In this document: positions 4,631 through 63,906 of the stretch, in pieces | Layout: every line of letters starts with the position of its first letter | Numbering within the stretch: position 1 is the first letter of the stretch | Source of the DNA: a virus | Direction: 5' to 3' (one strand) | IMG/VR virus record: IMGVR_UViG_3300019776_000521 | Span: 1 to 64,000 of that record | DNA length: 64,000 nucleotides | Position numbers and translations under genes: made by a program | Notes under the pieces: model-generated | What the model was told of the DNA's origin: nothing | The model's database searches: none | Seen by the model: the letters and a program-made list of their open reading frames with translations, nothing else

Positions 4631-5743
4631 ATGGAACAACTTCCACACGAAATGGCTTTGAGCAAAGCCAAGATTCAACTGATGTCTCGGCCTGACTCTG
4701 CGTTCTTCACGCATCTTGCTTTCAGCCTGAAACATTCGTTCGATGAATCGATTCCTACCGCAGGCACCGATGGTCGCAATGTGAAGTACAACCCCAAGTT
4801 CTTCATGTCGCTCAATCATGACGAACGGGTTTTTCTGATCCTTCACGAAGCCATGCATTGCGCCTATCTTCACATGGAGCGCGTCCAAAATCGAGACAAA
4901 CGCAGATACAACATTGCAGCCGACCATGTGATCAACCTTCAGCTGATCGAACGTGGATTCAGAATGCCCGTCATGGGCTTGGCTGATGGCACCTATGCAG
5001 GCATGTCCACGGAACAGGTCTACAACCTTCTACCGCCGCCTCCACCCAGCAAACCTATGGGTGGCTTCGGTGAGGATCTGCAAACGCCTGACGACCCCTC
5101 CAAGACCCTTGAAAACGACATTCAAAACGTCCTGATTCAAGCCGCCATTCAATCCAAGATGGCGGGCGATAAACCAGGAACCGTTCCAGGTGACATCCAG
5201 ATTTTTCTGGACAATCTGCTGTCGCCTAAGCTGCCTTGGTACCGCATTCTGCAAAAGTACATGCAGACGTTCAGCAAGAACGACTACTCGTTCAGGAAGC
5301 CCAACCGCAGGTTTCTTCCCAAGCACTACCTGCCGAGTATGTACAGCGAAAGCCTGATGGACCTGGCAGCGTTTGCCGACATTTCAGGCTCTGTCACTGA
5401 TAAGGAATTCCACCAGCAGCTATCCGAGACGGCTTCCATCATGAAAATGATGAAACCTTCCAAGATCACCTTTGGTCAGTTTGATACACAGATCAAGCAG
5501 ATCACCCAGGTGCGCAGCTTGACTGACATCCGAGACATCAAGTTCAGCGGCCGAGGGGGTACTCGAATCAAGCCAGTCATCGACTGGGCAAATGAGCACA
5601 AGCCTCAACTCTTGCTGCTCTTCACAGATGGCCATTTCAGGTTCCCTTCAGATCTCACCACCAAGAGTCAGGTAATCTGGCTCATCTACAACAATCCAAA
5701 GTTCACCGCACCCTTTGGAAAAGTCATTCACTACACAATTTGA
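4631..5743 (+). CDS. metallopeptidase + vWA domain protein (N4 gp25-like)
   Basis: HEAMH zincin motif; MIDAS-like DISGS, GGT, TDG. Confidence 0.85.
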   Translation: MEQLPHEMALSKAKIQLMSRPDSAFFTHLAFSLKHSFDESIPTAGTDGRNVKYNPKFFMSLNHDERVFLILHEAMHCAYLHMERVQNRDKRRYNIAADHVINLQLIERGFRMPVMGLADGTYAGMSTEQVYNLLPPPPPSKPMGGFGEDLQTPDDPSKTLENDIQNVLIQAAIQSKMAGDKPGTVPGDIQIFLDNLLSPKLPWYRILQKYMQTFSKNDYSFRKPNRRFLPKHYLPSMYSESLMDLAAFADISGSVTDKEFHQQLSETASIMKMMKPSKITFGQFDTQIKQITQVRSLTDIRDIKFSGRGGTRIKPVIDWANEHKPQLLLLFTDGHFRFPSDLTTKSQVIWLIYNNPKFTAPFGKVIHYTI

Positions 5744-10710: not shown

Positions 10711-11238
10711 ATGCGTTTAACCAACACAATCCGTGATGCATTTATTCGTGCAGCAATGAATGACGTTCCCTCTGTCGATTACGTAGAAGAAGTTCGGAAA
10801 GTTTTGACTGACGATACGATTGCTGGTTTACCTCAAGCCATCAAGGATATTGCCAAAGATCCTGTTCTATCTGGCTTCTTGCACAGTACATACGGTGGGT
10901 TTAATACCCGCATGTGCAGCGTCAGCTATATCGCTAACCGTCACCAAGAGCATCGTTTGAGCATGACAGCTCAAAAAACGGTCGATGAGCTGATAGCAAA
11001 GCATAAAGCGCAAACCGAGCAACGCAATACATTAAACGGAAAACTGCGTATTGCAGCCTATGGCTGCAATACCCGTAAAGCTTTGGTAGAGCTTCTACCT
11101 GAGTTTGAAAAATACCTGCCTGCTGATGAAGCCAAGGCAATTACCCAGAACCTTCCTGCAGTAGCCAATGTGCTGTCTGATTTCGTGAAAGCAGGCTGGC
11201 CTAAAAACCAACCCAAGATGCCCAAGGTCACACCATGA
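10711..11238 (+). CDS. Nmad5-like (nucleotide modification-associated) protein
   Basis: MRLTNTIRD start and NTRKALVELLPEFEKYLP resemble Nmad5 family from memory. Confidence 0.6.
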   Translation: MRLTNTIRDAFIRAAMNDVPSVDYVEEVRKVLTDDTIAGLPQAIKDIAKDPVLSGFLHSTYGGFNTRMCSVSYIANRHQEHRLSMTAQKTVDELIAKHKAQTEQRNTLNGKLRIAAYGCNTRKALVELLPEFEKYLPADEAKAITQNLPAVANVLSDFVKAGWPKNQPKMPKVTP

Positions 11239-11855: not shown

Positions 11856-12080
11856 ATGCTGCCTGACACGTTTCTACGTACAGAAGAAGTTCAAGCCCTG
11901 ACCAAGCGGACGGTACGTCCAGCGCAGGTCAGGGTATTGAAAGCAATGGGCATTGAACACAGGGTACGTCCTGATGGCAGCGTTGCTATCCTCAGAGCAC
12001 ACATCTCCAAAGTGTTCGATGGCAATCCTGAAGTCACCCGTCAAACCAAAACAGCTACACCCAACTGGGATGCTATGTAA
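11856..12080 (+). CDS. DUF4224-like excisionase / recombination directionality factor
   Basis: FLRTEEVQALT...AQVRVLKAMGI...RPDG; coupled (TAATG) to integrase. Confidence 0.75.
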   Translation: MLPDTFLRTEEVQALTKRTVRPAQVRVLKAMGIEHRVRPDGSVAILRAHISKVFDGNPEVTRQTKTATPNWDAM

Positions 12081-13171
12081 TGCCTCGCAAACGCAGCAAA
12101 GACAACAAGGGTCTACCTGCTCGCTGGAGACACACTCATGGAGGCTACTACTACCAGGTTCCTCCTGGCTTGGAGCACCTATGGGATGGCAAGAAAACCT
12201 TTCGTTTGGGAGCCAAGCTCAATGAAGCCTATCAAGTATGGGCATCACGCCTTGGCAAGGTAGATCAAGCCAAGACGATCGGACAACTGCTTGATCGCTA
12301 TGCCCTTGAAGTTATCCCAGCCAAAGCAGCTGCAAGCCAAAACAGCAACCGCAATCAGCTGCAGATGCTCAGGCGTGTGTTTGGTGAGCACCCTCTCCTT
12401 CCGTTTGTTCCCCAGCTGGTCTACCAGTACGTAGACAAGCGCAGCGTCAAGAAAAAGGATCCAGACACTGGCAAAGTCACTGGTGGAAGGATTGCAGCCC
12501 ATCGTGAAATCGAACTGCTGTCGCATGCGTACACCAAAGCAGTCGAATGGGGCTACATCGATCGCCATCCATTCAAGAACGAGGTAAGGCTCTCTGGTGA
12601 AAAGTCCAGAGACCGCTACATCGAAGATTGGGAAGTCATTGAGATTCTCTCATTGGCTTCACGTAGGAAGGCTGGAAGCGTTTTAATGATCCAAGCCTAC
12701 CTTCGCCTCAAGCTCCTCACTGGAATGGCTCAGGGAGACCTTCTGAGGCTTCAGGAGAGCCATATCAAAGAAGACGGCATCCACAACCAACGGCACAAGA
12801 CTGCAAACAGCACCGGCAAGAAGACCATTTACGAATGGTCACCCGAGCTTCGTGCTGCAGTAGTCCTGGCCAAGAGATCACGACCAGTGCACATCTCACC
12901 TTTTTTGTTCTGCAACAGAGACGGTGAGAGCTATGTGAACGAAGAAACTGGAGAAGCTGCTGGTTGGAAATCCATGTGGCAACGATTCACTCAACGAGTG
13001 ATCAAAGAAACCAAGGTCACTGAGCATTTCACTGAACACGACTTTCGAGCCAAGGTAGCCAGTGATGCTAAGACTCTGGAACACGCAAGATCTCTATTGG
13101 CTCATGCCGATAGCAGAACTACTGACAAGGCTTACAGACGAAAGGCTGAGAGGGTTTCTCCTCTTCGATAA
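12080..13171 (+). CDS. int: tyrosine recombinase / integrase
   Basis: HDFRAK, LAHAD, KAYRR box II residues; N-terminal arm-binding-like region. Confidence 0.9.
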   Translation: MPRKRSKDNKGLPARWRHTHGGYYYQVPPGLEHLWDGKKTFRLGAKLNEAYQVWASRLGKVDQAKTIGQLLDRYALEVIPAKAAASQNSNRNQLQMLRRVFGEHPLLPFVPQLVYQYVDKRSVKKKDPDTGKVTGGRIAAHREIELLSHAYTKAVEWGYIDRHPFKNEVRLSGEKSRDRYIEDWEVIEILSLASRRKAGSVLMIQAYLRLKLLTGMAQGDLLRLQESHIKEDGIHNQRHKTANSTGKKTIYEWSPELRAAVVLAKRSRPVHISPFLFCNRDGESYVNEETGEAAGWKSMWQRFTQRVIKETKVTEHFTEHDFRAKVASDAKTLEHARSLLAHADSRTTDKAYRRKAERVSPLR

Positions 13172-13173
13172 AC

Positions 13174-13542
13174 ATGAAAATCAAACTGAGCGAAACCACA
13201 CCGCTCCAGATCAACTATCTGGTGGCGAAGTGCCAAGGGGTGAAGTTGCATCCAGTACCACAAAGCGGAGTGATGGAGATTCATTTCTCAGAGCCGAATG
13301 GTTGCGCTACTTACCAACCATCGACCGACTGGGCCCAAGGTGGGCCGATCATCGAAAGAGAGAAAATTGAACTTAAATACCTTGGCTACGACAATCCCCC
13401 GTACTGGGGCGCGTTGAAGTTTTCCCCGAGCAGTTACGAGCGTAAAAAGGCTATTGGCCCCACACCCCTAATCGCAGCCATGCGCTGCTTCGTGGCCAGT
13501 CAGCTGGGCAATGAGATTGAGGTGCCTGATGGACTTATCTAA
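13174..13542 (+). CDS. NinX/DUF2591-family protein
   Basis: PSTDWAQGGPIIEREKI and GPTPLIAAMRCFV motifs. Confidence 0.8.
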   Translation: MKIKLSETTPLQINYLVAKCQGVKLHPVPQSGVMEIHFSEPNGCATYQPSTDWAQGGPIIEREKIELKYLGYDNPPYWGALKFSPSSYERKKAIGPTPLIAAMRCFVASQLGNEIEVPDGLI

Positions 13543-13744
13543 CTACGTGGTCTTGTACCGCATCGAGAAGATCATGACTCCGCTTGATACCCCCTTTGGC
13601 TTTCAATGCTGGGCAGACAATGCAGATCATGCCGAAGAACAGTGCATCAATGCCTATCCAGACTGCGATGTAGTCTGGGTATGGGAAGGTCCAGAAGGTG
13701 TCGGTATGCAACCAGCTTTGGCTGACTACTGGGGGAACACCTGA
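13529..13744 (+). CDS. hypothetical protein
   Basis: ATG 13529 with GAGG upstream, 71 aa. Confidence 0.6.
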   Translation: MDLSNYVVLYRIEKIMTPLDTPFGFQCWADNADHAEEQCINAYPDCDVVWVWEGPEGVGMQPALADYWGNT

Positions 13745-13884
13745 TGGGCTACTGTGATCCCAAAGCCATACGCAACGGAAAGGCTTGGGCTGATGTCGTC
13801 AACAAGACGCCCATGAACCCACCCCCAAAACCTGTACTATTGCCAAAACCCAGTTCTTTGAAAATCAAGGACTTACCGACTTAG
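13744..13884 (+). CDS. small hypothetical protein (46 aa)
   Basis: TGATG coupling; 3' half overlaps the candidate attP. Confidence 0.35.
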   Translation: MGYCDPKAIRNGKAWADVVNKTPMNPPPKPVLLPKPSSLKIKDLPT

Positions 13885-14050
13885 GATGTGGCCAAAAATA
13901 GTACAGCCACCATCATCCAAGTTGCTGATTCCACAAAGGAAATCGAATCCAGGACCATCTGGCTACGAACCAACAGTCTGAACCCGCAAAGCCAGTATTC
14001 ATGCGGATCTCCAGACACTGCTGTAGTATTGAAAGGCTGTTGTACTATAG
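13830..14050. other. candidate attP site
   Basis: Core TGGCTACGAACCAA 13960-13973; IHF consensus AATCAAGGACTTA 13863-13875 and near-consensus 13918-13930; TGTA(C/G)TAT repeats at 13832, 13898 (inverted), 14021, 14040. Confidence 0.7.
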
Positions 14051-14056
14051 ATGCAC

Positions 14057-14133
14057 GCGCCCGTAGCTCAGTTGGATAGAGCGTTCGGCTACGAACCGAA
14101 AGGCCGGGAGTTCGAGTCTCTCCGGGCGCGCCA
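14057..14133 (+). tRNA. tRNA-Arg(ACG)
   Basis: Acceptor GCGCCCG/CGGGCGC, D arm TAGCTCAGTTGGATAGAGC, loop CTACGAA, GTTCGA T loop, encoded CCA. Confidence 0.97.
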
Positions 14134-14138
14134 CCTCT

Positions 14139-14588
14139 TCACACCGTGTTGAGGCAAGCCATCTCACCATGCAGCTTTTGTGCTGCCCTGTTGTAGGCCA
14201 CTGCAGCTTCTTCTGCAGTGTCAAACCTACCCAGGTAGTGAGGCTTCTGGTTGATCTTGATCCTGGCCTCAAAACGACCAGCGTTCCTGTAGACCCCTTT
14301 GTACTTGATCTCGCCCCTTTGCTGAGGCTGGCGATTACAGGCATTGCCTGATCGATCCGTGATTCTCAAGTTGGCTTTCTGGTTGTCCAACTTGTTGTGC
14401 TTGCGATGATCAACCACTTGATCCCCCACTGCACCCATCACTAGACGGTGCATGCGGATCTTTTTGCCTTTGTGGTTTGCTACTGCATAGCCTTTGTCAG
14501 ATAAGTGCCAAGTAAATTGGCTCACTCTTTCAAAGTCTTCATCGTCAATTAAAGCAAACCCGCCTTCTACAATTGCAATTTCTTTCAT
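14139..14588 (-). CDS. HNH homing endonuclease with AP2 domain
   Basis: MHRLVM, VDHRKHNKLDNQKANLR, YKGVY, LGRFDTAEEAAVAYN. Confidence 0.9.
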   Translation of the reverse strand: MKEIAIVEGGFALIDDEDFERVSQFTWHLSDKGYAVANHKGKKIRMHRLVMGAVGDQVVDHRKHNKLDNQKANLRITDRSGNACNRQPQQRGEIKYKGVYRNAGRFEARIKINQKPHYLGRFDTAEEAAVAYNRAAQKLHGEMACLNTV

Positions 14589-14632
14589 ATGCCCCTTAAT
14601 TTACGAACCAGTAGGCATTCTATCAAAACCAT

Positions 14633-14893
14633 ATGAACCAAGTAATCCCAATCCCACCCATTGTCAGCACCGTAACCACTGTCCACGCAGTCGATCGCTG
14701 GAAAGAAGCCGTTGTCAACGAGCTAATGACTGCTCACATCTACGGAAGCAGCCACCAACACGATCCCAAGAAAGCCATCCAAGATGTCATTTCCTGGCAT
14801 GTGCAAGTAGCTTTGGACCCTCAAGTCTCCAGCGATGCTCAAAAGCTCATCGATCGTGGTGCAGCAGAAGAGCGTGCAAGGCTTCAGGGATGA
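14633..14893 (+). CDS. hypothetical protein
   Basis: 86-aa ORF coupled to next gene. Confidence 0.6.
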   Translation: MNQVIPIPPIVSTVTTVHAVDRWKEAVVNELMTAHIYGSSHQHDPKKAIQDVISWHVQVALDPQVSSDAQKLIDRGAAEERARLQG

Positions 14894-15105
14894 GCCAGAA
14901 AGCTCCAGGAGACGCGATCGCGGCCAAGCAGGGCCATCGGTACACCTACAACAATCACAGCGTCCTGGCCCTCAATACAGGCCGCATCGTCAGGATCCTG
15001 TCTTTTGATCCTGCCAAGCCTTGGTTTGGAAAGATCCAAAAAGTACCTGCTTGCTTTCTTACACCTGAGCCTATGGCCTACTTCCATGGAGAAATTCCAC
15101 AATGA
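14890..15105 (+). CDS. hypothetical protein
   Basis: ATGA coupling at 14890; C-terminal part of track ORF 14494-15105. Confidence 0.55.
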   Translation: MSQKAPGDAIAAKQGHRYTYNNHSVLALNTGRIVRILSFDPAKPWFGKIQKVPACFLTPEPMAYFHGEIPQ

Positions 15106-15275
15106 CCACAAAAGCTATTTCCCCGTTCAGCCTGGACTACGTGAGCCAGCTGAAGCCAGAACGCAAACAACCCTTCAAGAGGGTTGTGTTGACTCAGCCA
15201 CCTGTGAATGCCAGATCGAACATTGCCAGCGTGGATGAAGGCAAAGCTGCTCGGCTTCGTAAAGCCAACATCTGA
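15102..15275 (+). CDS. hypothetical protein (57 aa)
   Basis: ATGA coupling, GGAG upstream; stop abuts the Rz stop. Confidence 0.45.
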   Translation: MTTKAISPFSLDYVSQLKPERKQPFKRVVLTQPPVNARSNIASVDEGKAARLRKANI

Positions 15276-15782
15276 CTACCGGCTCAAAGCTTCCCTGGCT
15301 TTGTTGTACTGCCTGTAGCAGGCTGCAAGCTGTAGTCGAATGGTGTCGGCTCGGAGAGCTTCTTCCACATCCTCCGATCCAATCGTTCCAGGAAGCTGGG
15401 TTCCATCACTTCCCTGGGTAGCTCCTCCAGTGCTGGCAGCTGCGGAGGCTTTGGGCATTGGGGAACTTGTGGCTCCGTTTGCTTCAGCGTTGAGCAACCT
15501 CCTAAGAAGAGAATCACGCTGAGCAGTAAGATTCCTGATTGCTTCATTGGTTTCTTTCCGGGTTACTGCCGACGACAGGCCAAGATCCTGCTCCGTCTTT
15601 CTTACCGATTCGATCGCGGCTGCAACAGCTATCGCTGTTGCCGCTCGCTCACTTGCTATCTCCAATTCCAAGCCAGCGACTTCAAGCTGACTTTTGTGCA
15701 GGCGCATTGTCTGCGCTACCAGCAGACCGCCGATCACAACCAGCAATGCGATGCCGAGGTATTCTTTGATCGCATCAACCAT
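15276..15782 (-). CDS. i-spanin (Rz-like)
   Basis: N-terminal TM helix plus coiled coil, directly after endolysin. Confidence 0.8.
   Translation of the reverse strand: MVDAIKEYLGIALLVVIGGLLVAQTMRLHKSQLEVAGLELEIASERAATAIAVAAAIESVRKTEQDLGLSSAVTRKETNEAIRNLTAQRDSLLRRLLNAEANGATSSPMPKASAAASTGGATQGSDGTQLPGTIGSEDVEEALRADTIRLQLAACYRQYNKAREALSR
15284..15547 (-). CDS. o-spanin (Rz1-like lipoprotein) embedded in Rz
   Basis: Signal peptide with lipobox LGGC, Pro-rich, nested in another frame. Confidence 0.8.
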   Translation of the reverse strand: MKQSGILLLSVILFLGGCSTLKQTEPQVPQCPKPPQLPALEELPREVMEPSFLERLDRRMWKKLSEPTPFDYSLQPATGSTTKPGKL

Positions 15783-37450: not shown

Positions 37451-40400
37451 TTACTTCACAATTGCCATCGCAGTGTGCACCGTAGCCAAGTTGTCCAGTG
37501 CACCAAAGTACTGGAAAGCTCCAGAGTGCAATGGATTGTTTCCAATGTGCTGCGTAAACGAACTATCCAGAACGATGGGTCCGAGTTCCATGTAATGATT
37601 CAGTGCAATGGCTGACAGTACACGGGCCGGGTTCTCCCTGGCCAGCTTCAGCAGCACCCGTTGAATGCGTAGGAAGTACTTGGTAAATGGCGTCAGGCCC
37701 ATGTCGTCCGTGTACTGCAAACCACGGTGCATCGGGATGTCGTAGTTCACAAAGGCATCCGACGCTTCCTGAATTGCAGCTTCACGGCTCAACGGGTTCG
37801 TGCCCCTGCTCACCAGGTGCTGGTACAGCGTGTACCGAGCCACGAAGTCCGACAGCTGTGTAATGCGGCTCAGAGTCTGGTACATGTTGGTGTCATGCGT
37901 CATGTACACCGCCCTGCCTGCAGCACGAATCTTGGGGTTCAGCCTGCTGGTGAACTTCTCCGTCTTTCTCACAAACTCACTCTTGTACGAGTAGATGTTT
38001 TCCTCAGCAGCAAGATCTTCCACGATCGTAGGCATCAGCCCTGCTTCAATCAGTTCCTTGACCGGATTCCTAGCAATCGCGTCTTTCAAGCGAACGATTT
38101 CATCCTTAATTTCCTTTTCCTTACCCAGTCCGTAATCGACCTCCAGCATCGTCTGCAGATCCGCCAAACGCTGGCTATCTCTCTGGTATGCCGTAGCACC
38201 TTTCAACGCCACCAGGTGATGCTGCAATACGTCCTTCAACGACACGCCTGACATGGCAAGCAGCGACAAGTTCGACCAGATGTTCCCAAGCATCACAAAG
38301 CCAGTCTTGACCACAATGATGTCTTTGGTCTCGGCTACCAATTCCTGCCATGCACGTTCGCCCCTGGTGATCACTACGGCTGCTCTCTTGGCGTAATCCT
38401 CTGCGTCAGCTGCAGACAAGCCATGCCGCATGCCTGCGTAGTTTGCAAGCACTGTCTGCACCACATACACAAACAAGCCTTCCAGCTTGTTTCGTGCATC
38501 AGGATCCTTCTGGAACATCGACGCCAAAGTCAGCTTGCGATACCCAAACATGATGTCCAGTGAATCGCTGCGCACCTTCATGCCGTCCCTACCCCACACT
38601 GCCCTGATGTCTTTCTTCGTAGCATCAGGCAGTAAATCCCAGATCGCACGCATCTCAGGATCAGTGCTCCGATCGCCAACTTCAACGTAAGAATCCTTGC
38701 GGGTTGCGTACTCCAGTTCGTACTGTTCACGCAATACAGTGACTGCTTTTTTGTTCTGTTCCCGACTGGTCTCCTTGTCGTAGATCGAACCAGCAATCAC
38801 ACCGATCAGATTCTCAAACCTGTTGTCCCGCTCAAGCAGGTTGTCCTTGGTGGACTCAGCCATCATGTAGCGCCAGTTCACGATCGCACCTGTCTCGTTG
38901 TAGACAGGAATCATGTGGTTTTCTCTTTCAGCTGACAGATCCCTACGCGGATCACCCATACCTTGCATAGCAGCCAGCTTTTCGTTGGTGATGGTCGCTT
39001 GCATGCTTGCATTCTCAAGCCCGTTCAGCGTGTTCACGTTTACGTAGCCGCTGTGCTTTTTGCTGCCCCTAGACTTCATGCTGGACAAGGAAAACGCACC
39101 CGAAAGCCAAGGAGACAAGCCACCGTCCCTGAGCACGTAGATTCGCTTAGTTTCGGTATCCGGGTCAGCACGATCGTTAGACACCAGTGCGCCTGCCGAG
39201 TAGCCCTGGTTCACAAGCTCCTTGCCTTCTGCCTCGGTAGCAATCTTGATCGCTGTATGCGGGTTTAGGATCTCCGGCGTGTAGCCATGGATCATCAGCG
39301 CAGGATTGCCTTTGAACAACCGTTGTAGCGACTCCTCTTCCAGCTGCTTGTGCAGCTTCAACAGGAACTCAACACCGTTGCCATTGTTATCAGTTCGACT
39401 GTTTTCAGTCCTGAAAACTTCTTTGGCTTGGCTCAAGTGGTCACCTGCTGTGTACTTCAAGGCGTACAAAGAGATCAATGCTGCAATCACAGGCTCTGCC
39501 TGTTTTGCTTCAGCCTCAGAGATCTGCCGCTGGTACTGAGTGTTGGCCATCCTGGAGATCAAGTGTGCATTGAGCATCAGCACAGGAATTCTGGCTCGTC
39601 CAGTTGCTTTGAAGTAACCCAAACCATTGATCTGTTCGATGTACTTGTCTTTGTATTTAGAGGTCAGCTGAGACTCAAAGTTTTCAATGGCTTTGTCTAC
39701 TGCCTTGTAATCCCCAACCAGCTTCTCCAAATCAGCAACGCTGTAGTGATTCAGCAAGTTGTGCAAACCAGTTCTTAGAAACACAGCAGACACTGCAGCT
39801 TTGGCTTCCTTGCTCATTGCTTTGCCATTCTGAAACACGCTCAGCACAAGCTTCGAGTGCTGCGTGATGATGTTCTTGCGCTCACCTTCATGGCGCTTGG
39901 TTTCACGCAGCAGAGCATTGAACTTGTCCAACGGTCCCTTCAGTTCATTGAGCAAACTTGCTGCAATGCCTTGCCTGCCTTTGAACTGCTGATCACGAAG
40001 AATTTTCAATCCGTCAATCACTTGCTCCACCCGATCATTGGCAATGGTTCGAGCTATGCCCCCTGCTGCTTGAACAAACGCATTGCCGTTGTTACGAACA
40101 AATGACGAACCAGCAAGGTCACCTGCTTTTTCCCGGATGCCATCTGCCAGCGCTTTGACGCCTCTTTCAACTGGTTCAAGAATGCTGCGCTCTGTTGCAC
40201 GCTTCTTGATGAGCACTCGCTTTTTGGCTTCGATGTCCACCAGCTGGCCAACCAACGCTTCCAGCTTGGCGTCAGCGTTCTGACCAGCGTAGGTGTGCGT
40301 GAACTTCTCATTGAAGAAATTCAAAATGCGCTCAAAGATGCTTTCGAGCTTCTCGGTGAACGTCATGTCCTGGGCTGCTTTGCGTGAAGCAACCTTGGTT

Positions 40401-43400
40401 GCTCTTTTCAACAGCGTATTGAACTTTTCGCTGGCCAGGCCCAGGGCTGCAAATCGAGCCAGGTAATCCGAGCGATCGCCGTTGTTGCTCTCCAGCTTGA
40501 ACACAAAGTCGTAGTCTTCCTGGGACGCAAAATCCGATGGCTTGAGCGTATTGCGCATTTCAAGGTACAGATCAGCCAGCTGCTTGTAGGCAATCTTGGT
40601 TTGGGACTCGTTGCCGTTCAACGCTGCCCGCACGGTGGCTTCCACCTGCTGCATGGCAAAGTCTTCCTGTGCACTACCTGCAAACCCAGACGCCACAATC
40701 GATGATGCAAAGGGAGCGTTGCCTGTTTCCATGGCTTTGAGCCATACCGCCAAGGGATTGCCTGCCTCGGTCTTGCGCATCTGCTCTGCAAACGCACCAA
40801 ACGGGCCGTGGAGCTTCTCTACGATGCCACCCAGTAGGTTGGCCAGGTGCTCCTGGAACGAAGGCTCTACGGAGCCATTGGCCAAGGCGTTGTGGATGTC
40901 CAGGGTCGTGTACTTGTCGATCTGCTCGACGGTCTCCTGAGCAAGGTTCAGGTCGGCGTTGCTTGTCTTCTTTGCTTGAGCCGCTTCCGCAAACAATCCC
41001 GACACATTTGCAACCAGCACAGCCATGCCGTTGTTGAGATTCTCGTCAGGCTTTTTGAACAGCAGTTGCGTCAGCGTAGCGATGAACTTCTTCATGCCGG
41101 TGATCAGCGAGGTGCTGCCGGTCTTGGACTCCATGGTGATCTTGCTCAGCACATCACGCTGCAGGCCCAGGTTGGTCATGCCCCAAGCCACGAACTCTTG
41201 AACGTTGGCCAAAGCTGCCGTGTAGTCGTTCAGTCCGTTTTGCTTTGCATACTCTTGAGCCTTGACCCGCAGAGCTTCAAGCTCAGCCACCAGTGCTGCT
41301 GCTTCGCCGGTTGGCTTGTCGATCACCCGTGCAATCGCTGCGTGCACCAGTTCATGCAGCAATGTTTCGGCTGTCAAACCAGAGTTCTGAAACTCTGGAC
41401 TGAGTACGTAGATTTCCTCCTGGCCATTCTTGACGACGTACCACCCACGGGAATTGGTTGTGGGCTTTTCCAGAACCATGCTTTCCGCTGTCTCGGATGT
41501 CACAAACTTGATCTTCAAGTCAGGGCTAACCACCCGACTGACCAAAGCCAGGATCTTGCGATTGATTGCATTCATCCGTCCAGGTGCACCAAGCAGTGCA
41601 ATCACTTGGGACGCCGAGGCATTCGGATTGGCTTTGAAAAACCTGACCAGATCGCCATCACTTTCAATCTTTGGCGTACCGATTGGTCCAAACAGACTAT
41701 CGGCAGTAGCAACAGGCTTCTCGGTTGCAGGAGCAGGCTTTTCGGAAACACTCATGCCCAGGGCTTCAGAGATGATCACAAGAGCTTCTTGTTCCTTGGC
41801 AGAAAGCCCCTCTTTCAACGCAGACTGCATTGCTGCAGCATCACTACGATCGGCTTCGGTGACTTCGTAATTGCCACCTTCGAGTGCGTACTGATCAACC
41901 GAACCCATCTGGCTCAATGCTTCAAGACGCACACTGTCTGCGCTGAAAGCCGTGCTTGTTGCGTTTTGCAGCATGTCGCTCAGCACCGTGTCAGGGCTCA
42001 TCTCGTTCTCACCTGCAAACTTGTTCAACGCTTGCGTGAGATTCTCGACAACCTGAACAGGAAGATCCTTCTGAGCCAACAGCTCAGACAAGCCAACAAC
42101 CGTGCGAGACAACATGTTCGCCATCTCCGTTGCCGGAGAGTAGTTCAGCAGTGCACTCCAAGTAGCTTGATTCAGGTTCTGTGCTGTCTGACTAAATCCG
42201 CCCAAACCAGATCCATGAGCATCATGGATGTTTAGCACTTCATTGCCATCTGCAGCGTTGTGTGAGATTGCAGAGTCCAGCGAATGCGTGGACATCACGA
42301 CCATTGCTACGCCAGGATTGCTTTCGATCGTTTCAAACGCAGTAGCTTCGACCGATGATTGCTCAACGTAGCCGCCTTTCTTCTTGCTCCAAACCTTGGT
42401 TCCTTTGATTGCAGAACCAAACTTGACATTGCTTTTGAACGTGCTGCGAGTGCTGAGCTTGCGGCTTGATTTCGATGCAAACAGGCCAGCACGCAAGGAA
42501 CCACTTTCCTTGGACATGAGCGTGTGCATCACAGGAGCAAGCTTGCTCACTCGTTTCTTGAGTTCTTCCTGCTGCTTGAGTGTCAGATCGTGAATCGGAC
42601 GGTTCTTGCTATCTACTGCAATTTCACCAGACGCCACCAACTCAGCCAGGTACGCATCACGCAAGCCCATGTACGCTGCGTTGTACAGCTCGAATGAGAA
42701 CTGAGCACTCTTGTTCAGTGCATCGCGTTTGCTGATGAAATTGCCAAAGTCAGCGGACATTGTTTCCGACACTGCTTTGCCCAGCGTGTTCTTGAAGCTG
42801 TTCTTTAATGCCTTGATCTGATCTGAATCAAACTCGTAAGCAAGCAGCTTTTCCACAGACATCAATGAAAGCTTGGCGCCATCACCACCCCTCAGCAATA
42901 CATTGATGTTGTTGATAGTGGCTCGAATATCTGCTTTGCCTGCAGCCACATCTTCCATGCTGGAGTAGATGGATTCAATAAAGCCATCGGCCATGCTGTC
43001 TACAGCCGAACCAACAGAGGAGCCAAAGATCATCGCCGTCAAAGGCGTCTTGATGATGTTTCGACGCTTCTTGAGAATCTCAGGTGTCTCAAGAGTCAGA
43101 TTCCCGGTAAACGCATACACAGCGTTCAAAGTTGCACCAATCTTGCTGTCTTTCAGCAGCATCTTCTGCACGGCATTCGTCATGTGCAATGCAGTGATCT
43201 CGTATAAATCTTTGGCACCAGGCTTACCACGCCAAACGTTGTAGTTGGTGTTGGGATTGCTTTTCTCGAAGAACCCACCACGATTGAGCAAGCCAAACAA
43301 ATCCTTCACAGACTTTGCTGCACCAAGCAGGATATGGCTCAGCATGGGGCCATTGGTTACCCCGTCTACCTCGCCCATCATCTGAACGGAAAAGCTGTTC

Positions 43401-46400
43401 TTGCCATCAAGCTGCGCTTGTGCTTCCGTAGCCAAAGCCATCAGTGCATCCAGCGAATGAAAATTCATTCCGCCTTTCTTGACTCCAGCAAGCAGGACTT
43501 TTCCTTCTTCTGAAGTGATGCCACCTTCAAACACTGTCTTGCGCAACACTGCTACAGCGGCTTTGATCTCCGGCTGATTGACGTAGGATTCATAAGCAGC
43601 CAACGAAGTCTTGTTGGCTTGCTTGTCTGTCTTGACTCCCAGACCTTCAAGAACCCTGAGCCGAAAGTTGTCCATCTGATCGGCATTGCCCATATCGACC
43701 ATCGTGGTCCATGCGTTGCGAAATAGCATGAAGCGATGGATCTTGCTGGTCTGCGGATTGATGACGTTGGTGGCAATACCAACTCGTTGCTGCTTCCACA
43801 CCGAATGCTCAAAATACATTGGAGCTTCGATGTCAGCCATGCTTTTGACAAACTCCATGAACCTATCCAGTTCACGAAGCAGCCCATCGTTCTTTGCCTG
43901 CAAACCTGGCTTGTTGACTGCATGAGTTTTGGTGTCGGAAATCTCAACGACACCTGCAATGCCTTGAAGCACATCGTCACCAAGCTGCGTGATCAGCTGC
44001 CACATGTCTTGCCGCACATAGTTGGCTTCTGCATTCTTGGCAGCAACAATCTTTGCAAGCTTCTCCGGTACGTTCTGGTTGGTGTTGCGTGTCTTTTTCT
44101 GCACAAACGGAACTGGCTCAAGGCTGGGTTCCTTCAAACCAGACTCTACTGAAAACAGCTTGTCGAGCACTCCTTGCGAACCAATGGATGCCTTGACGAT
44201 CCGCTCTGCATCAGCAGGCAAAGTGCTCTGCGCATTCCTGGCAAGTTTGACGAAATGAAATTCTGCGTTCGTGTTCGTGCTTTCCTTGTTCGTCAACGCA
44301 GCCATGGTCTCACCTGAGACTGTTGACCTTTCAAGCAGTCCTAGATCCATCATCAACTTCCATGCATGTGCACCCAGGGAAGCTTCCAGGTCAGGCATCA
44401 GATTGACTGGGGCATCCTTCGACACTTTGAAACCAAGCGCCTGTACAACTGCTTGGCCAAGCGAGTTGCGCACCAGGTTTTCCCTTACGCCTACGTTGCC
44501 GAGCACCATGCGTTCAGCTTGCGAGACGCTGACAGTTTCATCCCGATCGAGAATCGCGTTGATGTCTTCGTCAGTGTTGTACAGATTCTTGGATGCAGCT
44601 TCTGCAACCCAGCTGAACACTGCATAGCTGATTGCAGTCTTCACATTCTGATCAACATCTAGCTTTCCATCGTTCTCTTGGATCAGGTACTGCATCATGT
44701 CTTCGTACCGGAACTCTTTGGTACGAGCACTCAGATTCTTTTGAATCAACCCTTGCCATTGCTGGTTCAGTTCTTGAAACAGCTGCAGCACTTCTTGCTG
44801 CTTGCCGCTGAGAGACTTGATGCCAAGGAAATCCAGAACATTCTGAGCACCCTGGCTCAGGAAGTTTTTCACCTTCACTAAAGGCCGCTCAGTCAGATCG
44901 CCTTCACGACTGGCTTGCTGAGTGAAGAAGTCTGCAATGAGGTTACGAAGAGGAAACGATGTCCCCTCCGTGGACTTTTCCTGAAGCGTCGTAACAGCAC
45001 CAGGCTGCGTAGACAGTGCACTTGCGACCTCTTCAGAAACTGGAACAACCTCTGAAGGGGTCGTGCTAGTCTGCTCAGTAGACTGCAGTTGACCTTGATT
45101 TGTCTCAGGAGACGCAACAGTTGTCCTAGTAGAGCCGGAGGCTCCTACAGACGCAGCAGGCTCACCCGAAACACTTTCTACGGTTTGTCCAGCGGCGGAT
45201 TCAGTTGCTGCGGTTGCTGGTACTGAGGGGTTGACGGCTCCTCCTTCAACTCCTCCGGTCGGCTGACTCGTACCTGCTTCAGTCGAGGGCGCAGTTTCTG
45301 TGCGATTCGGACTGGCTTGTAATCCTTCGAGTGTTTGCGATACGTTCGAGACATTACTGACTCCATTGGAAATAGGTTGGGCAAACTTCAGCCCGTAGGC
45401 TGCTCGAAGCTCTGTTGCCGCCTTGGTCAGTGCATCCGATTCAATCTGAATGTTATCAACAATTTTGGTGCTGTTCCTGACAATATCCAGGCCACCATTT
45501 TGCTGACGTTCTTTTTGACTGGGCCATTTCCCAGTTTCAATCGACCAGCTTCCATTGCCATCACTAACAATGCGCCGCTCCTGCCCGTCTTTCTCAAACA
45601 GGGCTTTTGCTTCAGCAGCCACTTGTGCTTTCTGCTGATGGTCGCTGACAAAGTTGTCCAGCAGCTGCAACTGCGCAGTAGCGGCTTTTGAGTTGTTTGC
45701 TGCCAGTGCAGTCGTGACATTGGCTCGGTATTGCTGAATACCGATGTTCCCTTTGCCGCCATAGAAAACCTCCTTCGAGACCTTATCCATGGTCTTGAGT
45801 TGGTTCTCTGCTTGCCGTGCTTGCGTGAATGCCCGCAGGTAGCCCCGCTGCGGGTCCGTCAGGCCGTTTGTCGTGTCATTGGCAAGCGACGCAGCCAGGT
45901 TGGTATCCAGGCGCTCTGGCGTGGCCATAGACAGGTTGATGATGCTGTCCGCTGCAGCCTGTGAAGCTACCGGATCAGCAGCAGTGATCTTTGCAGCCTC
46001 AGCTTCTACATCCAGCTCCTTGGATTGGTTTTCCTGATTGAAGTTATTCAGCACCTCCTGAGCTGATGCAATCTGCTCATCAAGCCGAGAGATCTGCTTT
46101 TGCAACCTTGGACCAGCGTCTGTCTCCTTGGCCAGGGTTGCAAGTTCAGCTTCCAGAGCATCGACGGTAGGCTGATCTCCAGCTTCTCTGGCTTGAACCA
46201 GTTGAGCCATGTAGCCAGCCACAGCTTCAGGCGAGATAGAAGCGTAGTTTTCTTCTGCTTTTTGTTTCTGCTCAAGCAGATCAGACACGATGCCCGATGC
46301 CTGCTCAAACTTTGCTTGTTTCAGTTCGGGCGTAGCGGTCGGCAATTGGCTGTGGCCATACAAAGCCGATACAGCCTGATCTGGGGCGTAGGACGGGCTT

Positions 46401-47647
46401 TTGGGATCCAGGAAGGTAGTGACATCACCTGAGACAATCGCAGCTTGTAGGGCTTCTGCTTTCGTTGCGTCGGCTACTTTCTTTTCAAATTTAAGCAGAG
46501 ACATTTCGGATGCAGACTTCAAAGTCTGAATACCACCACCCATGATTCCGCCCATGAAGGCACCCTGACCAGCAGCAGCACCAACGCCATCAAAAAGCTC
46601 TTGTGCTGGCTTAATCTCCTTGACTGCAGAATTTCCAAAATAGCGTCCGCTACCCTCTTCTATTCCTTCCTGCCCAGCTTCTCCAACAAATGCTTTGGGT
46701 ACAGCAACAAAACCACCTGCTTTCTTGCCAATCAGAGCTTTCTCAATTGCAGTACCACCAGGAAGTGCAGAAGAAAACAACGAAACTGCTCCTGCTTTAA
46801 GCGTAGCTTCTCCGGCCAACTGCGATGCAATAGCTTGCTTGGCTTGTTGAGGACCAAGGCTTTCAGCCAAAGCTACATACTCAGGGTTTTGATCCCAAAC
46901 AGCATCAGGCAACGACATCATTCGCTGCATCGTGTCTGAACCAACATCGACACCTTGCAACACAGCGCCCGTACCAACAGCAGCAGCTGTGCCACTCTTT
47001 TCCACAGCAATCTGTCCGGCTTTGGTTGCTGCAACTTTAGGCAGTGTTTTGGCTGTAGCAGCAGCAGCTAGTTCAGCACCACGACCTACTTTGCTCATCA
47101 CTCCCAGTTGCGCTGCTTGTTGAGCCAAAAACTCAGGAATGCTTCCTGGGTCTTTTGCAGCTTCCCAGAATGCAGCACCAAACTCTGCAGCAACTTGCCC
47201 AGCTACACCTGTTACGCCATCACCTAAAGCTTCCCGTGCTGCTTTGCCCGCTTTGCCAGCAACCACTGCTTTTTCTTGATTTTTGGCTTGAGCAAAAGCT
47301 GATTTCAGTTTTTCTCGTTCATCAGACATTTTGCTGATGTCTTGTGTTTCAGGCCCGTACCAATCACCAGTGGTAGCTTTGTCGTAAACCATCGCTGGCA
47401 ACTTGGCCAGTCCATCGATACCTTGAACAGCTGACAAAGCCAAGTCTTTTGTGTAGTCCCCCCACGACCTACCTTCATCAATGGCTTGATCTCTGGCTAC
47501 TTGCGCAGTGTTTTGCGCCAACGCTTGCCGGTAAGTTTCCAAGCCAGCAAGCTTCTCTTGACGAGCTTGAAGAATTTGATCAATCTTTTCAGGATTCGGC
47601 GCACCATACTTTTGAAGCAAATACTGATCAACATTGAAGGTGGCCAT
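37451..47647 (-). CDS. virion RNA polymerase (N4 gp50-like), about 3398 aa
   Basis: Start MATFNV; no Cys seen; EVDGVTNG, RNIIKTPLTAMIFG, IHDA; synteny. Confidence 0.95.
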   Translation of the reverse strand: MATFNVDQYLLQKYGAPNPEKIDQILQARQEKLAGLETYRQALAQNTAQVARDQAIDEGRSWGDYTKDLALSAVQGIDGLAKLPAMVYDKATTGDWYGPETQDISKMSDEREKLKSAFAQAKNQEKAVVAGKAGKAAREALGDGVTGVAGQVAAEFGAAFWEAAKDPGSIPEFLAQQAAQLGVMSKVGRGAELAAAATAKTLPKVAATKAGQIAVEKSGTAAAVGTGAVLQGVDVGSDTMQRMMSLPDAVWDQNPEYVALAESLGPQQAKQAIASQLAGEATLKAGAVSLFSSALPGGTAIEKALIGKKAGGFVAVPKAFVGEAGQEGIEEGSGRYFGNSAVKEIKPAQELFDGVGAAAGQGAFMGGIMGGGIQTLKSASEMSLLKFEKKVADATKAEALQAAIVSGDVTTFLDPKSPSYAPDQAVSALYGHSQLPTATPELKQAKFEQASGIVSDLLEQKQKAEENYASISPEAVAGYMAQLVQAREAGDQPTVDALEAELATLAKETDAGPRLQKQISRLDEQIASAQEVLNNFNQENQSKELDVEAEAAKITAADPVASQAAADSIINLSMATPERLDTNLAASLANDTTNGLTDPQRGYLRAFTQARQAENQLKTMDKVSKEVFYGGKGNIGIQQYRANVTTALAANNSKAATAQLQLLDNFVSDHQQKAQVAAEAKALFEKDGQERRIVSDGNGSWSIETGKWPSQKERQQNGGLDIVRNSTKIVDNIQIESDALTKAATELRAAYGLKFAQPISNGVSNVSNVSQTLEGLQASPNRTETAPSTEAGTSQPTGGVEGGAVNPSVPATAATESAAGQTVESVSGEPAASVGASGSTRTTVASPETNQGQLQSTEQTSTTPSEVVPVSEEVASALSTQPGAVTTLQEKSTEGTSFPLRNLIADFFTQQASREGDLTERPLVKVKNFLSQGAQNVLDFLGIKSLSGKQQEVLQLFQELNQQWQGLIQKNLSARTKEFRYEDMMQYLIQENDGKLDVDQNVKTAISYAVFSWVAEAASKNLYNTDEDINAILDRDETVSVSQAERMVLGNVGVRENLVRNSLGQAVVQALGFKVSKDAPVNLMPDLEASLGAHAWKLMMDLGLLERSTVSGETMAALTNKESTNTNAEFHFVKLARNAQSTLPADAERIVKASIGSQGVLDKLFSVESGLKEPSLEPVPFVQKKTRNTNQNVPEKLAKIVAAKNAEANYVRQDMWQLITQLGDDVLQGIAGVVEISDTKTHAVNKPGLQAKNDGLLRELDRFMEFVKSMADIEAPMYFEHSVWKQQRVGIATNVINPQTSKIHRFMLFRNAWTTMVDMGNADQMDNFRLRVLEGLGVKTDKQANKTSLAAYESYVNQPEIKAAVAVLRKTVFEGGITSEEGKVLLAGVKKGGMNFHSLDALMALATEAQAQLDGKNSFSVQMMGEVDGVTNGPMLSHILLGAAKSVKDLFGLLNRGGFFEKSNPNTNYNVWRGKPGAKDLYEITALHMTNAVQKMLLKDSKIGATLNAVYAFTGNLTLETPEILKKRRNIIKTPLTAMIFGSSVGSAVDSMADGFIESIYSSMEDVAAGKADIRATINNINVLLRGGDGAKLSLMSVEKLLAYEFDSDQIKALKNSFKNTLGKAVSETMSADFGNFISKRDALNKSAQFSFELYNAAYMGLRDAYLAELVASGEIAVDSKNRPIHDLTLKQQEELKKRVSKLAPVMHTLMSKESGSLRAGLFASKSSRKLSTRSTFKSNVKFGSAIKGTKVWSKKKGGYVEQSSVEATAFETIESNPGVAMVVMSTHSLDSAISHNAADGNEVLNIHDAHGSGLGGFSQTAQNLNQATWSALLNYSPATEMANMLSRTVVGLSELLAQKDLPVQVVENLTQALNKFAGENEMSPDTVLSDMLQNATSTAFSADSVRLEALSQMGSVDQYALEGGNYEVTEADRSDAAAMQSALKEGLSAKEQEALVIISEALGMSVSEKPAPATEKPVATADSLFGPIGTPKIESDGDLVRFFKANPNASASQVIALLGAPGRMNAINRKILALVSRVVSPDLKIKFVTSETAESMVLEKPTTNSRGWYVVKNGQEEIYVLSPEFQNSGLTAETLLHELVHAAIARVIDKPTGEAAALVAELEALRVKAQEYAKQNGLNDYTAALANVQEFVAWGMTNLGLQRDVLSKITMESKTGSTSLITGMKKFIATLTQLLFKKPDENLNNGMAVLVANVSGLFAEAAQAKKTSNADLNLAQETVEQIDKYTTLDIHNALANGSVEPSFQEHLANLLGGIVEKLHGPFGAFAEQMRKTEAGNPLAVWLKAMETGNAPFASSIVASGFAGSAQEDFAMQQVEATVRAALNGNESQTKIAYKQLADLYLEMRNTLKPSDFASQEDYDFVFKLESNNGDRSDYLARFAALGLASEKFNTLLKRATKVASRKAAQDMTFTEKLESIFERILNFFNEKFTHTYAGQNADAKLEALVGQLVDIEAKKRVLIKKRATERSILEPVERGVKALADGIREKAGDLAGSSFVRNNGNAFVQAAGGIARTIANDRVEQVIDGLKILRDQQFKGRQGIAASLLNELKGPLDKFNALLRETKRHEGERKNIITQHSKLVLSVFQNGKAMSKEAKAAVSAVFLRTGLHNLLNHYSVADLEKLVGDYKAVDKAIENFESQLTSKYKDKYIEQINGLGYFKATGRARIPVLMLNAHLISRMANTQYQRQISEAEAKQAEPVIAALISLYALKYTAGDHLSQAKEVFRTENSRTDNNGNGVEFLLKLHKQLEEESLQRLFKGNPALMIHGYTPEILNPHTAIKIATEAEGKELVNQGYSAGALVSNDRADPDTETKRIYVLRDGGLSPWLSGAFSLSSMKSRGSKKHSGYVNVNTLNGLENASMQATITNEKLAAMQGMGDPRRDLSAERENHMIPVYNETGAIVNWRYMMAESTKDNLLERDNRFENLIGVIAGSIYDKETSREQNKKAVTVLREQYELEYATRKDSYVEVGDRSTDPEMRAIWDLLPDATKKDIRAVWGRDGMKVRSDSLDIMFGYRKLTLASMFQKDPDARNKLEGLFVYVVQTVLANYAGMRHGLSAADAEDYAKRAAVVITRGERAWQELVAETKDIIVVKTGFVMLGNIWSNLSLLAMSGVSLKDVLQHHLVALKGATAYQRDSQRLADLQTMLEVDYGLGKEKEIKDEIVRLKDAIARNPVKELIEAGLMPTIVEDLAAEENIYSYKSEFVRKTEKFTSRLNPKIRAAGRAVYMTHDTNMYQTLSRITQLSDFVARYTLYQHLVSRGTNPLSREAAIQEASDAFVNYDIPMHRGLQYTDDMGLTPFTKYFLRIQRVLLKLARENPARVLSAIALNHYMELGPIVLDSSFTQHIGNNPLHSGAFQYFGALDNLATVHTAMAIVK

Positions 47648-47687
47648 ATAGTCTTTCGGTCTGAAGGAAGTGGTAGCTATTCTAAAG

Positions 47688-47712
47688 AAAAAGCCGGGAG
47701 TTACCCGGCTTT
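47688..47712 (-). terminator. hairpin/terminator upstream of vRNAP
   Basis: AAAGCCGGG-agtta-CCCGGCTTT with A run on left (T run on minus strand). Confidence 0.65.
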
Positions 47713-47714
47713 GA

Positions 47715-63153: not shown

Positions 63154-63906
63154 TTAAACCCAGCCGTTGCTCTCCAGCCTGGTGTTCTGGCTTCCCTGAT
63201 CCACACGGAGGTTGAAGGTTTCCAGATCCTTGCAGGCTGCTTCGTACTTAGCAGCGTAGTTGTTTCCTGCATTGAACTCGTTCGTCATGCCTGTGGGCGT
63301 GTGCACACGGCTGGCCACGAACAAAAGCAGCGGAGCCAAGTGGCTGTACGGAAGATCGACTTCAACTGCTTCAGGATCCAGATCACCTTCGTCAGTTACC
63401 AGGATCTTGTGGTTGGCCCGGTAGACCACTTCCAGGGTCGAAGTCTTCAGTTCATCCGGCAGATCCATTGAACCATTCACAATGGCTGAAGGCACACGCA
63501 AAACAAAAGCACTGGGAGTAAACAGAGAGTAGGTGTCCGAATCGTCATTCAAGCCAAGCTCAAAGCCGTCAGCCGTGTACACCCGTTCGATCTTGTGGAT
63601 GTCGTCAATGAACGGTGCAGCAGTGGAGTCCGCGATGTAGCGCACCGGCTCCTTGGATTTCGTGCTGCTCACAGCGTAGCTGCTGTTGATCGGGTAGGTA
63701 GTACGGTTGGCCTGAAGCGTCAGGATCAGCCGGCCCTCCTTCAACGGAAAGCGCTTGTGCAGTTCGGTCAAGCCAAGTCGCACATGCGACAGCACACGAT
63801 CGTAGTTCGCAGCAGAAATCACCCCAGCCTCACCACCCCCAATGCTCAGCTGCGAAAGCTCGCCATATGTCAGCTGGTCAAACACTTCTTTCAGTTTCAT
63901 AGGCAT
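63154..63906 (-). CDS. N4 gp67-like head-tail adaptor
   Basis: L.YGELS, GLTELHKRF.LKE, V.YRANH, ends NGWV; true start may be ATG 63900. Confidence 0.8.
   Translation of the reverse strand: MPMKLKEVFDQLTYGELSQLSIGGGEAGVISAANYDRVLSHVRLGLTELHKRFPLKEGRLILTLQANRTTYPINSSYAVSSTKSKEPVRYIADSTAAPFIDDIHKIERVYTADGFELGLNDDSDTYSLFTPSAFVLRVPSAIVNGSMDLPDELKTSTLEVVYRANHKILVTDEGDLDPEAVEVDLPYSHLAPLLLFVASRVHTPTGMTNEFNAGNNYAAKYEAACKDLETFNLRVDQGSQNTRLESNGWV

Follow-up and report, generated by a model that had tools for sequence, protein, structure and literature searches.

The locus described here raises the question of whether a 14-base match to the anticodon arm of a bacterial tRNA-Arg(ACG), lying close to a complete tRNA-Arg(ACG) gene in a phage genome, is an attachment site at which integration would break the host gene and put a phage gene in its place. 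The window, by which we mean the whole stretch of 64,000 bases that was analyzed, covers positions 1–64,000 of an IMG/VR virus record that has 73,555 bases and is rated 100% complete. The source phage is N4-like (Schitoviridae). Both subunits of the N4-type RNA polymerase II are encoded at positions 69013–71219 of the record (phrog_2166, 5.9e-103; phrog_2051, 1.7e-117), and an ORF of 3,470 aa at 37451–47863 fits a virion RNA polymerase in size and place. The RNA polymerase II genes form the right end of the record, for which IMG/VR lists no end repeats; compared with the gene order of phage N4, this suggests that the record is circularly permuted. The probable hosts of the phage are Burkholderiales, and the best reading of the locus, to which we give slightly better than an even chance, is tRNA-dependent lysogeny in an N4-like phage of these hosts.

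Anatomy of the putative attachment site

The features on which the argument turns are the following, with the offsets of repeats counted from the first G of the core.

11856–12080, plus strand: excisionase-like gene, 74 aa (phrog_1266, 2.5e-09; Pfam DUF4224, 9e-11)
12080–13171, plus strand: tyrosine integrase gene, 363 aa (phrog_1, 2.6e-27; Pfam PF00589, 20.9 bits)
After the integrase gene, up to 13884: NinX-like gene and two small ORFs
13833–13840, plus strand: arm-type repeat P1, TGTACTAT, at -128 from the core (-129 in L002, -128 in L018)
13898–13905, minus strand: arm-type repeat P2, TGTACTAT inverted, at -63 from the core (likewise in L002, L009, and L018)
13960–13973, plus strand: putative attP core of 14 bases, equal to the anticodon arm of Burkholderiales tRNA-Arg(ACG) (3-bp stem, CTACGAA loop, stem)
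13974–14021, plus strand: non-tRNA spacer, at the position where a terminator hairpin follows the tRNA 3' half in relatives
14022–14029, plus strand: arm-type repeat P'1, TGTAGTAT, with one mismatch, at +61 from the core and 19 bases before P'2
14041–14048, plus strand: arm-type repeat P'2, TGTACTAT, at +80, an invariant block in four aligned attP/attL sequences
14057–14133, plus strand: complete tRNA-Arg(ACG) gene (ARAGORN; Rfam, 68 bits, the tRNA gathering score being 29)
14139–14588, minus strand: HNH-AP2 homing-type endonuclease gene (phrog_99, 5.2e-38; Pfam AP2, 5e-08)

The excisionase-like gene ends at the start codon of the integrase gene, and an ORF just upstream of this module (10711–11238) matches Pfam Nmad5 (nucleotide modification associated domain 5, 3e-11). 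The HNH-AP2 gene lies 5 bases from the tRNA gene and is absent in the related loci L002 and L004; the lysis genes come next after it, and no relatives of it were found in IMG/VR. It is one of three HNH endonuclease genes in the genome, the others lying at 4631–5743 of the window and 71394–71864 of the record.

It had been predicted that the 14-mer, TGGCTACGAACCAA, corresponds to the anticodon arm of the phage tRNA with 83 bases between the two elements, and the coordinates bear this out, the gap spanning 13974–14056. The arm of the phage tRNA reads TTCGGCTACGAACCGAA, and the block common to the two is GGCTACGAACC, at 13961–13971 and 14087–14097. This tRNA is the only one in the window, as scanned with ARAGORN, and in the whole 73.5-kb record. 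Within the window, GGCTACGAACC has two matches at up to one mismatch versus an expectation of 0.49, and at least two are seen in 7 of 100 shuffles; taken by itself the repeat would be weak evidence, and its meaning rests on comparison with relatives.

The 8-base repeat TGTACTAT marks the attP arms, and arm repeats are found at matching offsets in a subset of the integrase family (L002, L009, L018, L029, L031, and L049), including the following.

L002: left -129 and -63 (inverted); right +105 and +124
L009: left -63; right +105 and +124
L018: left -128 and -63; right +83 and +102
L031 and L049 (prophage attL): left none reported; right +105 and +124

The right pair has the same 19-base spacing in the window as in the relatives and is closer to the core by 44 bases than in most of them. 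The positions of the right pair (+105/+124, +83/+102, and +61/+80) differ by steps of 22 bases, or about two turns of the helix, as would be seen if a spacer of varying length had preserved the helical phase. A MAFFT alignment alternatively places P'1 opposite a GTAGTA element after the tRNA half in L002, in which case ~51 bases, the terminator hairpin and one repeat among them, would have been deleted. Under either alignment a perfect arm repeat lies between the core and the tRNA gene, which starts 8 bases past P'2, and beyond the tRNA gene there is none.

The left flank of the 14-mer is homologous to that of the relatives (ggaccatcT in the window, gggaccagcT in L002), and the homology to their attP sites ends exactly after CCAA at 13973; the 14-mer is therefore the core of attP and not the anticodon arm that belongs to the tRNA. 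Rfam finds no tRNA-like sequence around it even at E ≤ 10, and no T arm or acceptor strand follows, so that the lack of these parts noted in the original prediction is confirmed. We also considered the 14-mer as a piece of a decayed tRNA and rejected this on the flank comparison and the Rfam result. Where L002 has 89 bases comprising the remainder of the tRNA and a terminator hairpin, the window has ~45 unrelated bases. Between the core and the next shared gene there are 919 bases in the window versus 437 in L002 and 345 in L004, and the surplus consists of the tRNA and HNH genes.

A simple consensus scan found no promoter-like site between the core and the tRNA gene. The only plus-strand site of this kind, a consensus match at 13858–13887, lies left of the core, so integration would part it from the tRNA gene; a weak terminator-like hairpin, likewise a consensus match, lies 3' of the tRNA gene at 14190–14207.

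Relatives and their attachment sites

A scan of IMG/VR with the integrase recovered 27 related loci (48–80% identity), and in 11 of them GGCTACGAACC lies beside the integrase gene. The complete 3' half of tRNA-Arg, down to the CCA, directly follows GGCTACGAACC in 10 of these 11 loci; in the eleventh, L003, the contig stops 13 bases past the core, and those bases fit too. The nearest relatives of the integrase, L002–L006 (73–81% identity by alignment), carry the core on the same strand as the integrase gene, and so does the window. Because GGCTACGAACC occupies the same place relative to the integrase gene and the arm repeats in these relatives, the region of the 14-mer can be assigned as attP on comparative grounds, and we regard this assignment as close to certain. 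The earlier proposal of the 14-mer as an attP core thus gains from three sides, namely these relatives, the arm repeats, and the prophage junctions described below.

Classical restoring attP sites of the same integrase family (L002, L004–L006, L009, L014, L018, L022, and L028; 48–81% identity, core GGCTACGAACC) continue through the tRNA 3' half to the CCA and a terminator, whereas the window has neither. Its attP lacks the run of tRNA sequence from the crossover to the 3' end by which a restoring site is recognized and is unable to restore the tRNA, as had been predicted from the missing 3' half after the core. A further proposal, that the altered stem of the window's core protects against self-targeting, is unsupported, since the bases left of GG are very varied among the attP sites of the family, which tolerate such differences, and in L029 even the GG itself is replaced.

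Two of the five nearest loci belong to N4-like genomes of 70 kb (G406 and G407; 95–96% complete), which encode an N4-type RNAP1 that is 82% and 72% identical, respectively, to that of the source phage; both retain the tRNA 3' half and carry no tRNA-Arg gene. In G407 there are no tRNA genes at all, and the only ones in G406 are those for tRNA-Asn(GTT) and tRNA-Tyr(GTA), adjacent to each other at 63175–63339 (1176–1340 of L088) and far from attP. The distribution across these genomes is complementary: the relatives have the restoring half without a tRNA-Arg gene, and the window has the cognate tRNA gene without the half.

The arrangement in the window is also seen outside this record. Contigs of four public runs, which held at most 0.15 of the sampled words and yielded contigs from related phages, were placed on 12000–15500. 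Record 16 of run X5, from another study, covers 13948–14619 without a break (87 differences and 15 gaps; ~87% identity) and holds the same stretch of core, spacer, tRNA, and HNH gene; record 24 of X6 covers 13983–14133; and the spacer 13974–14021 is also present in record 3 of X1 and record 7 of X2. The relative in X1 and X2 shares 13586–13874, 13957–14014, and 14106–14594 with the window and has 826 bases versus 232 in the window; these about 590 extra bases in the region indicate that the locus is structurally unstable. Because the stretch recurs in contigs of other runs, it is neither an assembly accident nor confined to one genome, and the region varies.

Host tRNA genes and the integrase

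In bacterial genomes, scanned at one genome per species, we found 43 related loci (41–67% identity), mostly of Betaproteobacteria by record title. In 8 of the 43, a tRNA-Arg(ACG) gene has its 3' end toward the integrase gene, the prophages in tRNA-Arg(ACG) being L030, L031, L042, L049, L050, L055, L056, and L068. The host tRNAs read CTTGGCTACGAACCAAGG in L030, L031, L049, L055, and L056 and CCTGG...CCAGG in L042, L050, and L068. The betaproteobacterial arm that the original prediction had given, TTGGCTACGAACCAA, is real and occurs in the host tRNAs at the prophage junctions of the first five of these loci. Other loci of the integrase family adjoin tRNA-Arg(TCT), tRNA-Arg(CCT), tRNA-Ser(GGA), or tRNA-Lys(CTT); with five tRNA genes next to one integrase family (L029–L071), the family re-targets readily.

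Paired att repeats, or both ends of the element, are visible in L030 and in genome G004, where the full tRNA gene and a repeat of its positions 29–77 lie 51.8 kb apart. At an inner junction in L029 the sequence to the left of CTACGAACC shows no relation to the tRNA, and the left limit of identity is CTACGAA, which places the crossover in or to the right of the 7-base anticodon loop. These prophages show the classical layout, where the 3' part of the tRNA arrives with the element; it falls under the anticodon-loop sublocation among the classes reported by Williams in 2002. On contig 3 of the Ferrigenium MAG G005, in which L029 lies, a full tRNA-Arg(ACG) gene (663820–663896) is accompanied by repeats of the 3' half at 725769–725813 and 773960–774011, 62 and 110 kb away, which suggests that two elements are inserted in tandem at one tRNA.

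The 14-mer is present in 236 of 401 sampled Burkholderiales genomes (234 of 399 without two genomes flagged as unpublished) and absent in 165 of the 401, with controls using the reversed pattern near zero. The 317 matches are distributed as one copy in 174 genomes, many of which are incomplete, two in 47, three in 11, and four in 4; the copies in the 62 multi-copy genomes are often in tandem, 100–400 bases apart. The complete chromosome G004 has one tRNA-Arg(ACG) gene, the other close match being tRNA-Arg(CCG).

The integrase of the window has K240, H320-x-x-R323, H342, and Y352, and lambda R212 aligns with A217, which is followed by Q218; the canonical first catalytic arginine is absent. The Pfam PF00589 score is below the cut-off of 27.1, and a profile of the integrase alignment gave no match to PDB sequences at E ≤ 0.01. 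The canonical first arginine is missing in about a third of the integrase family, as seen from the residues that follow TG-x.

RR: 31 integrases
AR or SR: 16 integrases, including those of the integrated prophages L007, L029–L031, L049, L055, and L056
AQ or SQ: 7 integrases, those of the window, L002–L006, and L043

Integrases with glutamine as the second residue have also lost the otherwise conserved Asp in GWDSMW (integrase residues 214–223 and 295–300 in the window); its position is taken by K in the N4-like sequences, six in all, and by A in L043 and L044. From the alignment, this covariation looks as though a salt bridge had been lost and not a catalytic residue. The integrated relatives without the canonical arginine have A or S and then R, and members that lack this arginine clearly integrate; the lambda mutant R212Q is said to be defective. 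No att repeats were found around the SQ-type integrase in L043. We take the window integrase to be active, with moderate confidence, because members without the arginine integrate, because the AQ clade (dN/dS 0.05–0.18) keeps tRNA halves, which match two different host tRNA variants, and because dN/dS is low (about 0.09–0.11 relative to L002 and L004). The gene is intact and under purifying selection, and it is preceded by the excisionase gene. The closest integrase of a cultured phage is that of Xanthomonas phage PBR31 (MT119766.1), with 59.8% identity over 100% of the query; PBR31 has an adjacent excisionase gene like that of the window, and it is a 40-kb phage that is not N4-like.

From anatomy to a proposed mode of lysogeny

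The anatomy of the site and its comparison with the family are direct observations. From them we infer that the phage integrates, that the host promoter drives its tRNA, and that this tRNA is required. In the mechanism that we propose, 13833–14048 would be a functional attP for the lambda-type tyrosine integrase of the xis-int module (11856–13171), with the anticodon loop of the host tRNA-Arg(ACG) gene as the crossover region. The ancestral attP would have carried the tRNA 3' half, so that the gene was rebuilt on integration; in the lineage of the window the 3' half and the terminator would have been replaced by unrelated DNA, leaving a common core of 14 bp, and integration would thus split the host tRNA irreparably. 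Recombination within CTACGAA would produce two junctions, attL with the host promoter, positions 1–43 of the host tRNA, the 83-base spacer, the phage tRNA, and then the HNH gene onward, and attR with the integrase gene onward, the left arm, the core, and the orphan 3' half of the host tRNA. Because the core and the phage tRNA both lie on the tRNA sense strand of the core, the phage tRNA would come to stand in line behind the host promoter. Where the host has only one such gene, the lysogen would not survive without the phage tRNA as long as the prophage is in place, and precise excision would restore the host gene. A fuller claim can be put forward, which we hold tentatively and rate somewhat below an even chance: that the phage is a temperate N4-like virus of freshwater Burkholderiales and replaces the single essential tRNA-Arg(ACG) of its host by its own allele in cis, cutting the host gene at the anticodon loop and bringing a tRNA gene that lacks a consensus promoter under the host promoter; that the relatives with the restoring half show a conversion from restoring to replacing caught in the act; and that this has come about in an integrase clade without the canonical first arginine.

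Parts of this scheme had been predicted. The claim that integration cuts the host tRNA and sets the phage tRNA just behind its promoter agrees with the orientation of the two elements and the 83-base geometry, whereas no attL or attR of the source phage, nor any extended match to the right flank, was found in the sequence searches. The host search that had been called for recovered the 14-mer in the majority of sampled Burkholderiales genomes, and prophage ends at 13960–13973 were not found. As for dependence of the lysogen on the phage tRNA, it is favored by the 174 of 236 genomes with a single 14-mer and weakened by the 62 with two to four copies. Exact searches of IMG/VR for the core with its right flank and for the left flank with the core each gave zero matches, as did a gapped pattern (the core followed by a base other than G, with a tRNA start 75–105 bases on); the same gapped pattern gave 11 matches in JGI metagenomes, all of them host tandem tRNA-Arg arrays, which we rejected as noise. 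Among the ends listed for the contigs of the four runs, neither a tRNA 5' half joined to 13974 nor a 3' half joined to 13973 was found. The core plus the next five bases, at up to one mismatch, had four matches in 151 genomes versus six for the control, all four in unrelated sequence. An N4-like RNAP1 query that does recover G406 and G407 had no match in the 401 sampled Burkholderiales genomes. The favored reading is further weakened by the missing first arginine of the integrase, by the lack of a recognizable repressor among the ORFs scanned, by the shifted position of the P' repeats, and by the structural instability of the locus seen in X1 and X2.

The absence of a lysogen, a junction, and an N4-like prophage from these searches is what would be expected if the attP were a relic, an explanation that we consider unlikely and still the one to be weighed most closely. 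The 3' half would have been lost together with viable integration, the excisionase and integrase genes would persist while lysogeny is defunct or rare, and the tRNA and HNH genes would be a mobile cassette of lytic growth, serving translation capacity or escape from tRNA-targeting defenses, that may have arrived by recombination, perhaps attracted by the tRNA-like sequence of attP. It would also account for the missing first arginine and for the lack of a recognizable repressor among the 42 distinct ORFs scanned; the tRNA and HNH genes are extra relative to L002 and L004 in a genome with three HNH endonucleases, and CGT, CGC, and CGA make up 65% of the Arg codons in long ORFs, so that the tRNA would aid lytic translation as well. 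A relic is harder to reconcile with arm repeats and a 14-bp core that stand in place as in the relatives while the DNA between them has been replaced, with an intact integrase of low dN/dS, and with the recurrence of the architecture in a diverged relative from another study. That the only tRNA of the genome should be the cognate one and abut attP is also hard to obtain by chance (about 1 in 40 anticodons by our own estimate).

The numbers of host genes bear on a milder alternative, in which the phage does integrate at the 14-mer, but in hosts with at least two tRNA-Arg(ACG) genes, so that its tRNA would be helpful and not required. Genomes with two to four copies of the 14-mer and the tandem tRNA-Arg(ACG) arrays common in metagenome contigs speak for such hosts, whereas the 14-mer is single in nearly three-quarters of the genomes that have it, many of them incomplete, and the restoring half has been retained in the relatives without a tRNA-Arg gene, a sign that losing the gene carries a cost; we regard this alternative as improbable. 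Still less probable, and in our view barely tenable, is that the phage attaches through its full tRNA gene, the anticodon arm of which would then be the core, so that recombination would give two chimeric complete tRNAs and the 14-mer would be a leftover. The 11-base block, including the whole 7-base loop, is indeed common to the phage and host tRNAs, but the arm repeats are all upstream of the tRNA gene and flank the 14-mer, and the flank homologous to the attP of the relatives is the left flank of the 14-mer and not that of the tRNA. A functionless chance repeat of the 11-mer, for which the shuffles of the window would speak if taken alone, was rejected as next to impossible by its constant place relative to the integrase gene and arm repeats in 11 of 27 relatives.

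The reading that we favor, tRNA-dependent lysogeny, concerns a phenomenon that is already known; what is notable here is the host group, the phage family, and the in-line layout. It has been described in actinobacteriophages, namely Fionnbharth (K4), cluster L, and Gaia (X), whose systems combine a tyrosine integrase with arm sites, a core of 8–17 bp, no rebuilt tRNA, and a cognate phage tRNA, whereas sister phages have a core of 43–49 bp and no tRNA gene (Guerrero-Bustamante & Hatfull 2024, PMC10865867). As far as the text of that paper describes them, the pairs Fionnbharth and Boilgate, and Gaia and Omega, show the same pattern as the window and its relatives, and the likeness extends to an attB in a tRNA gene (predicted for the source phage from its integrase family), a core of 14 bp within the range of 8–17 bp, and a tRNA with the same anticodon. 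The window differs in its Pseudomonadota host, its N4-like podovirus background, and the tRNA-Arg(ACG) involved, and in being known from sequence alone; moreover, the Fionnbharth tRNA lies elsewhere with a promoter of its own that has been demonstrated, whereas the tRNA of the window abuts attP codirectionally. The same text names one possible case outside Actinobacteria, Lactobacillus prophage Lj965, and its Discussion asks how common tRNA-dependent lysogeny is elsewhere (PMC10865867).

Two further systems come close. Prophages of Sinorhizobium meliloti cut tRNA-Leu(UAG) centrally, inactivating the gene, and carry a tRNA whose anticodon is the same but which was not copied from that gene; according to the main text they resemble Mesorhizobium phage vB_MloP_Lo5R7ANS (PMC11476347). 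That case is alphaproteobacterial, involves another tRNA, and consists of integrated prophages, whereas the phage described here is known in its free form. Lysogeny genes in N4-like phages are not confined to the window either, 54 N4-like genomes and proviruses having been reported with integrase or similar genes in a paper whose main text describes neither attP nor the target site nor a role of the tRNA (PMC10654107). No case of tRNA-dependent lysogeny in N4-like phages or Schitoviridae came to light in the main texts of the literature searched, PMC13015707 among them, in line with the original prediction. The locus is a candidate for this kind of lysogeny in Gram-negative bacteria and among the N4-like phages, a group that for a long time was regarded as strictly lytic. 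Because the ancestral restoring state is kept in sister genomes, the evolutionary step is visible, and the layout suggests an economical arrangement in which the host promoter would serve the replacement tRNA. A further point concerns annotation: attP cores of ~14 bp escape searches for long blocks of tRNA identity.

The phage tRNA is identical to the tRNAs at the prophage junctions at 59–65 of 77 positions and shares the acceptor stem, D arm, and discriminator base with the target tRNAs; it is not a copy of the target tRNAs seen. An origin by aberrant excision, in which a host tRNA was captured together with upstream DNA, was rejected as the simple account on two grounds, the presence of P' repeats of the phage itself in the spacer and this limited identity. 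The closest match that we found to the phage tRNA, at 71 of 77 positions, is the second ACG gene of the tandem array L082, one of the metagenome contigs L072–L082, which carry arrays of tRNA-Arg(ACG), tRNA-Arg(ACG), and tRNA-Arg(TCG).
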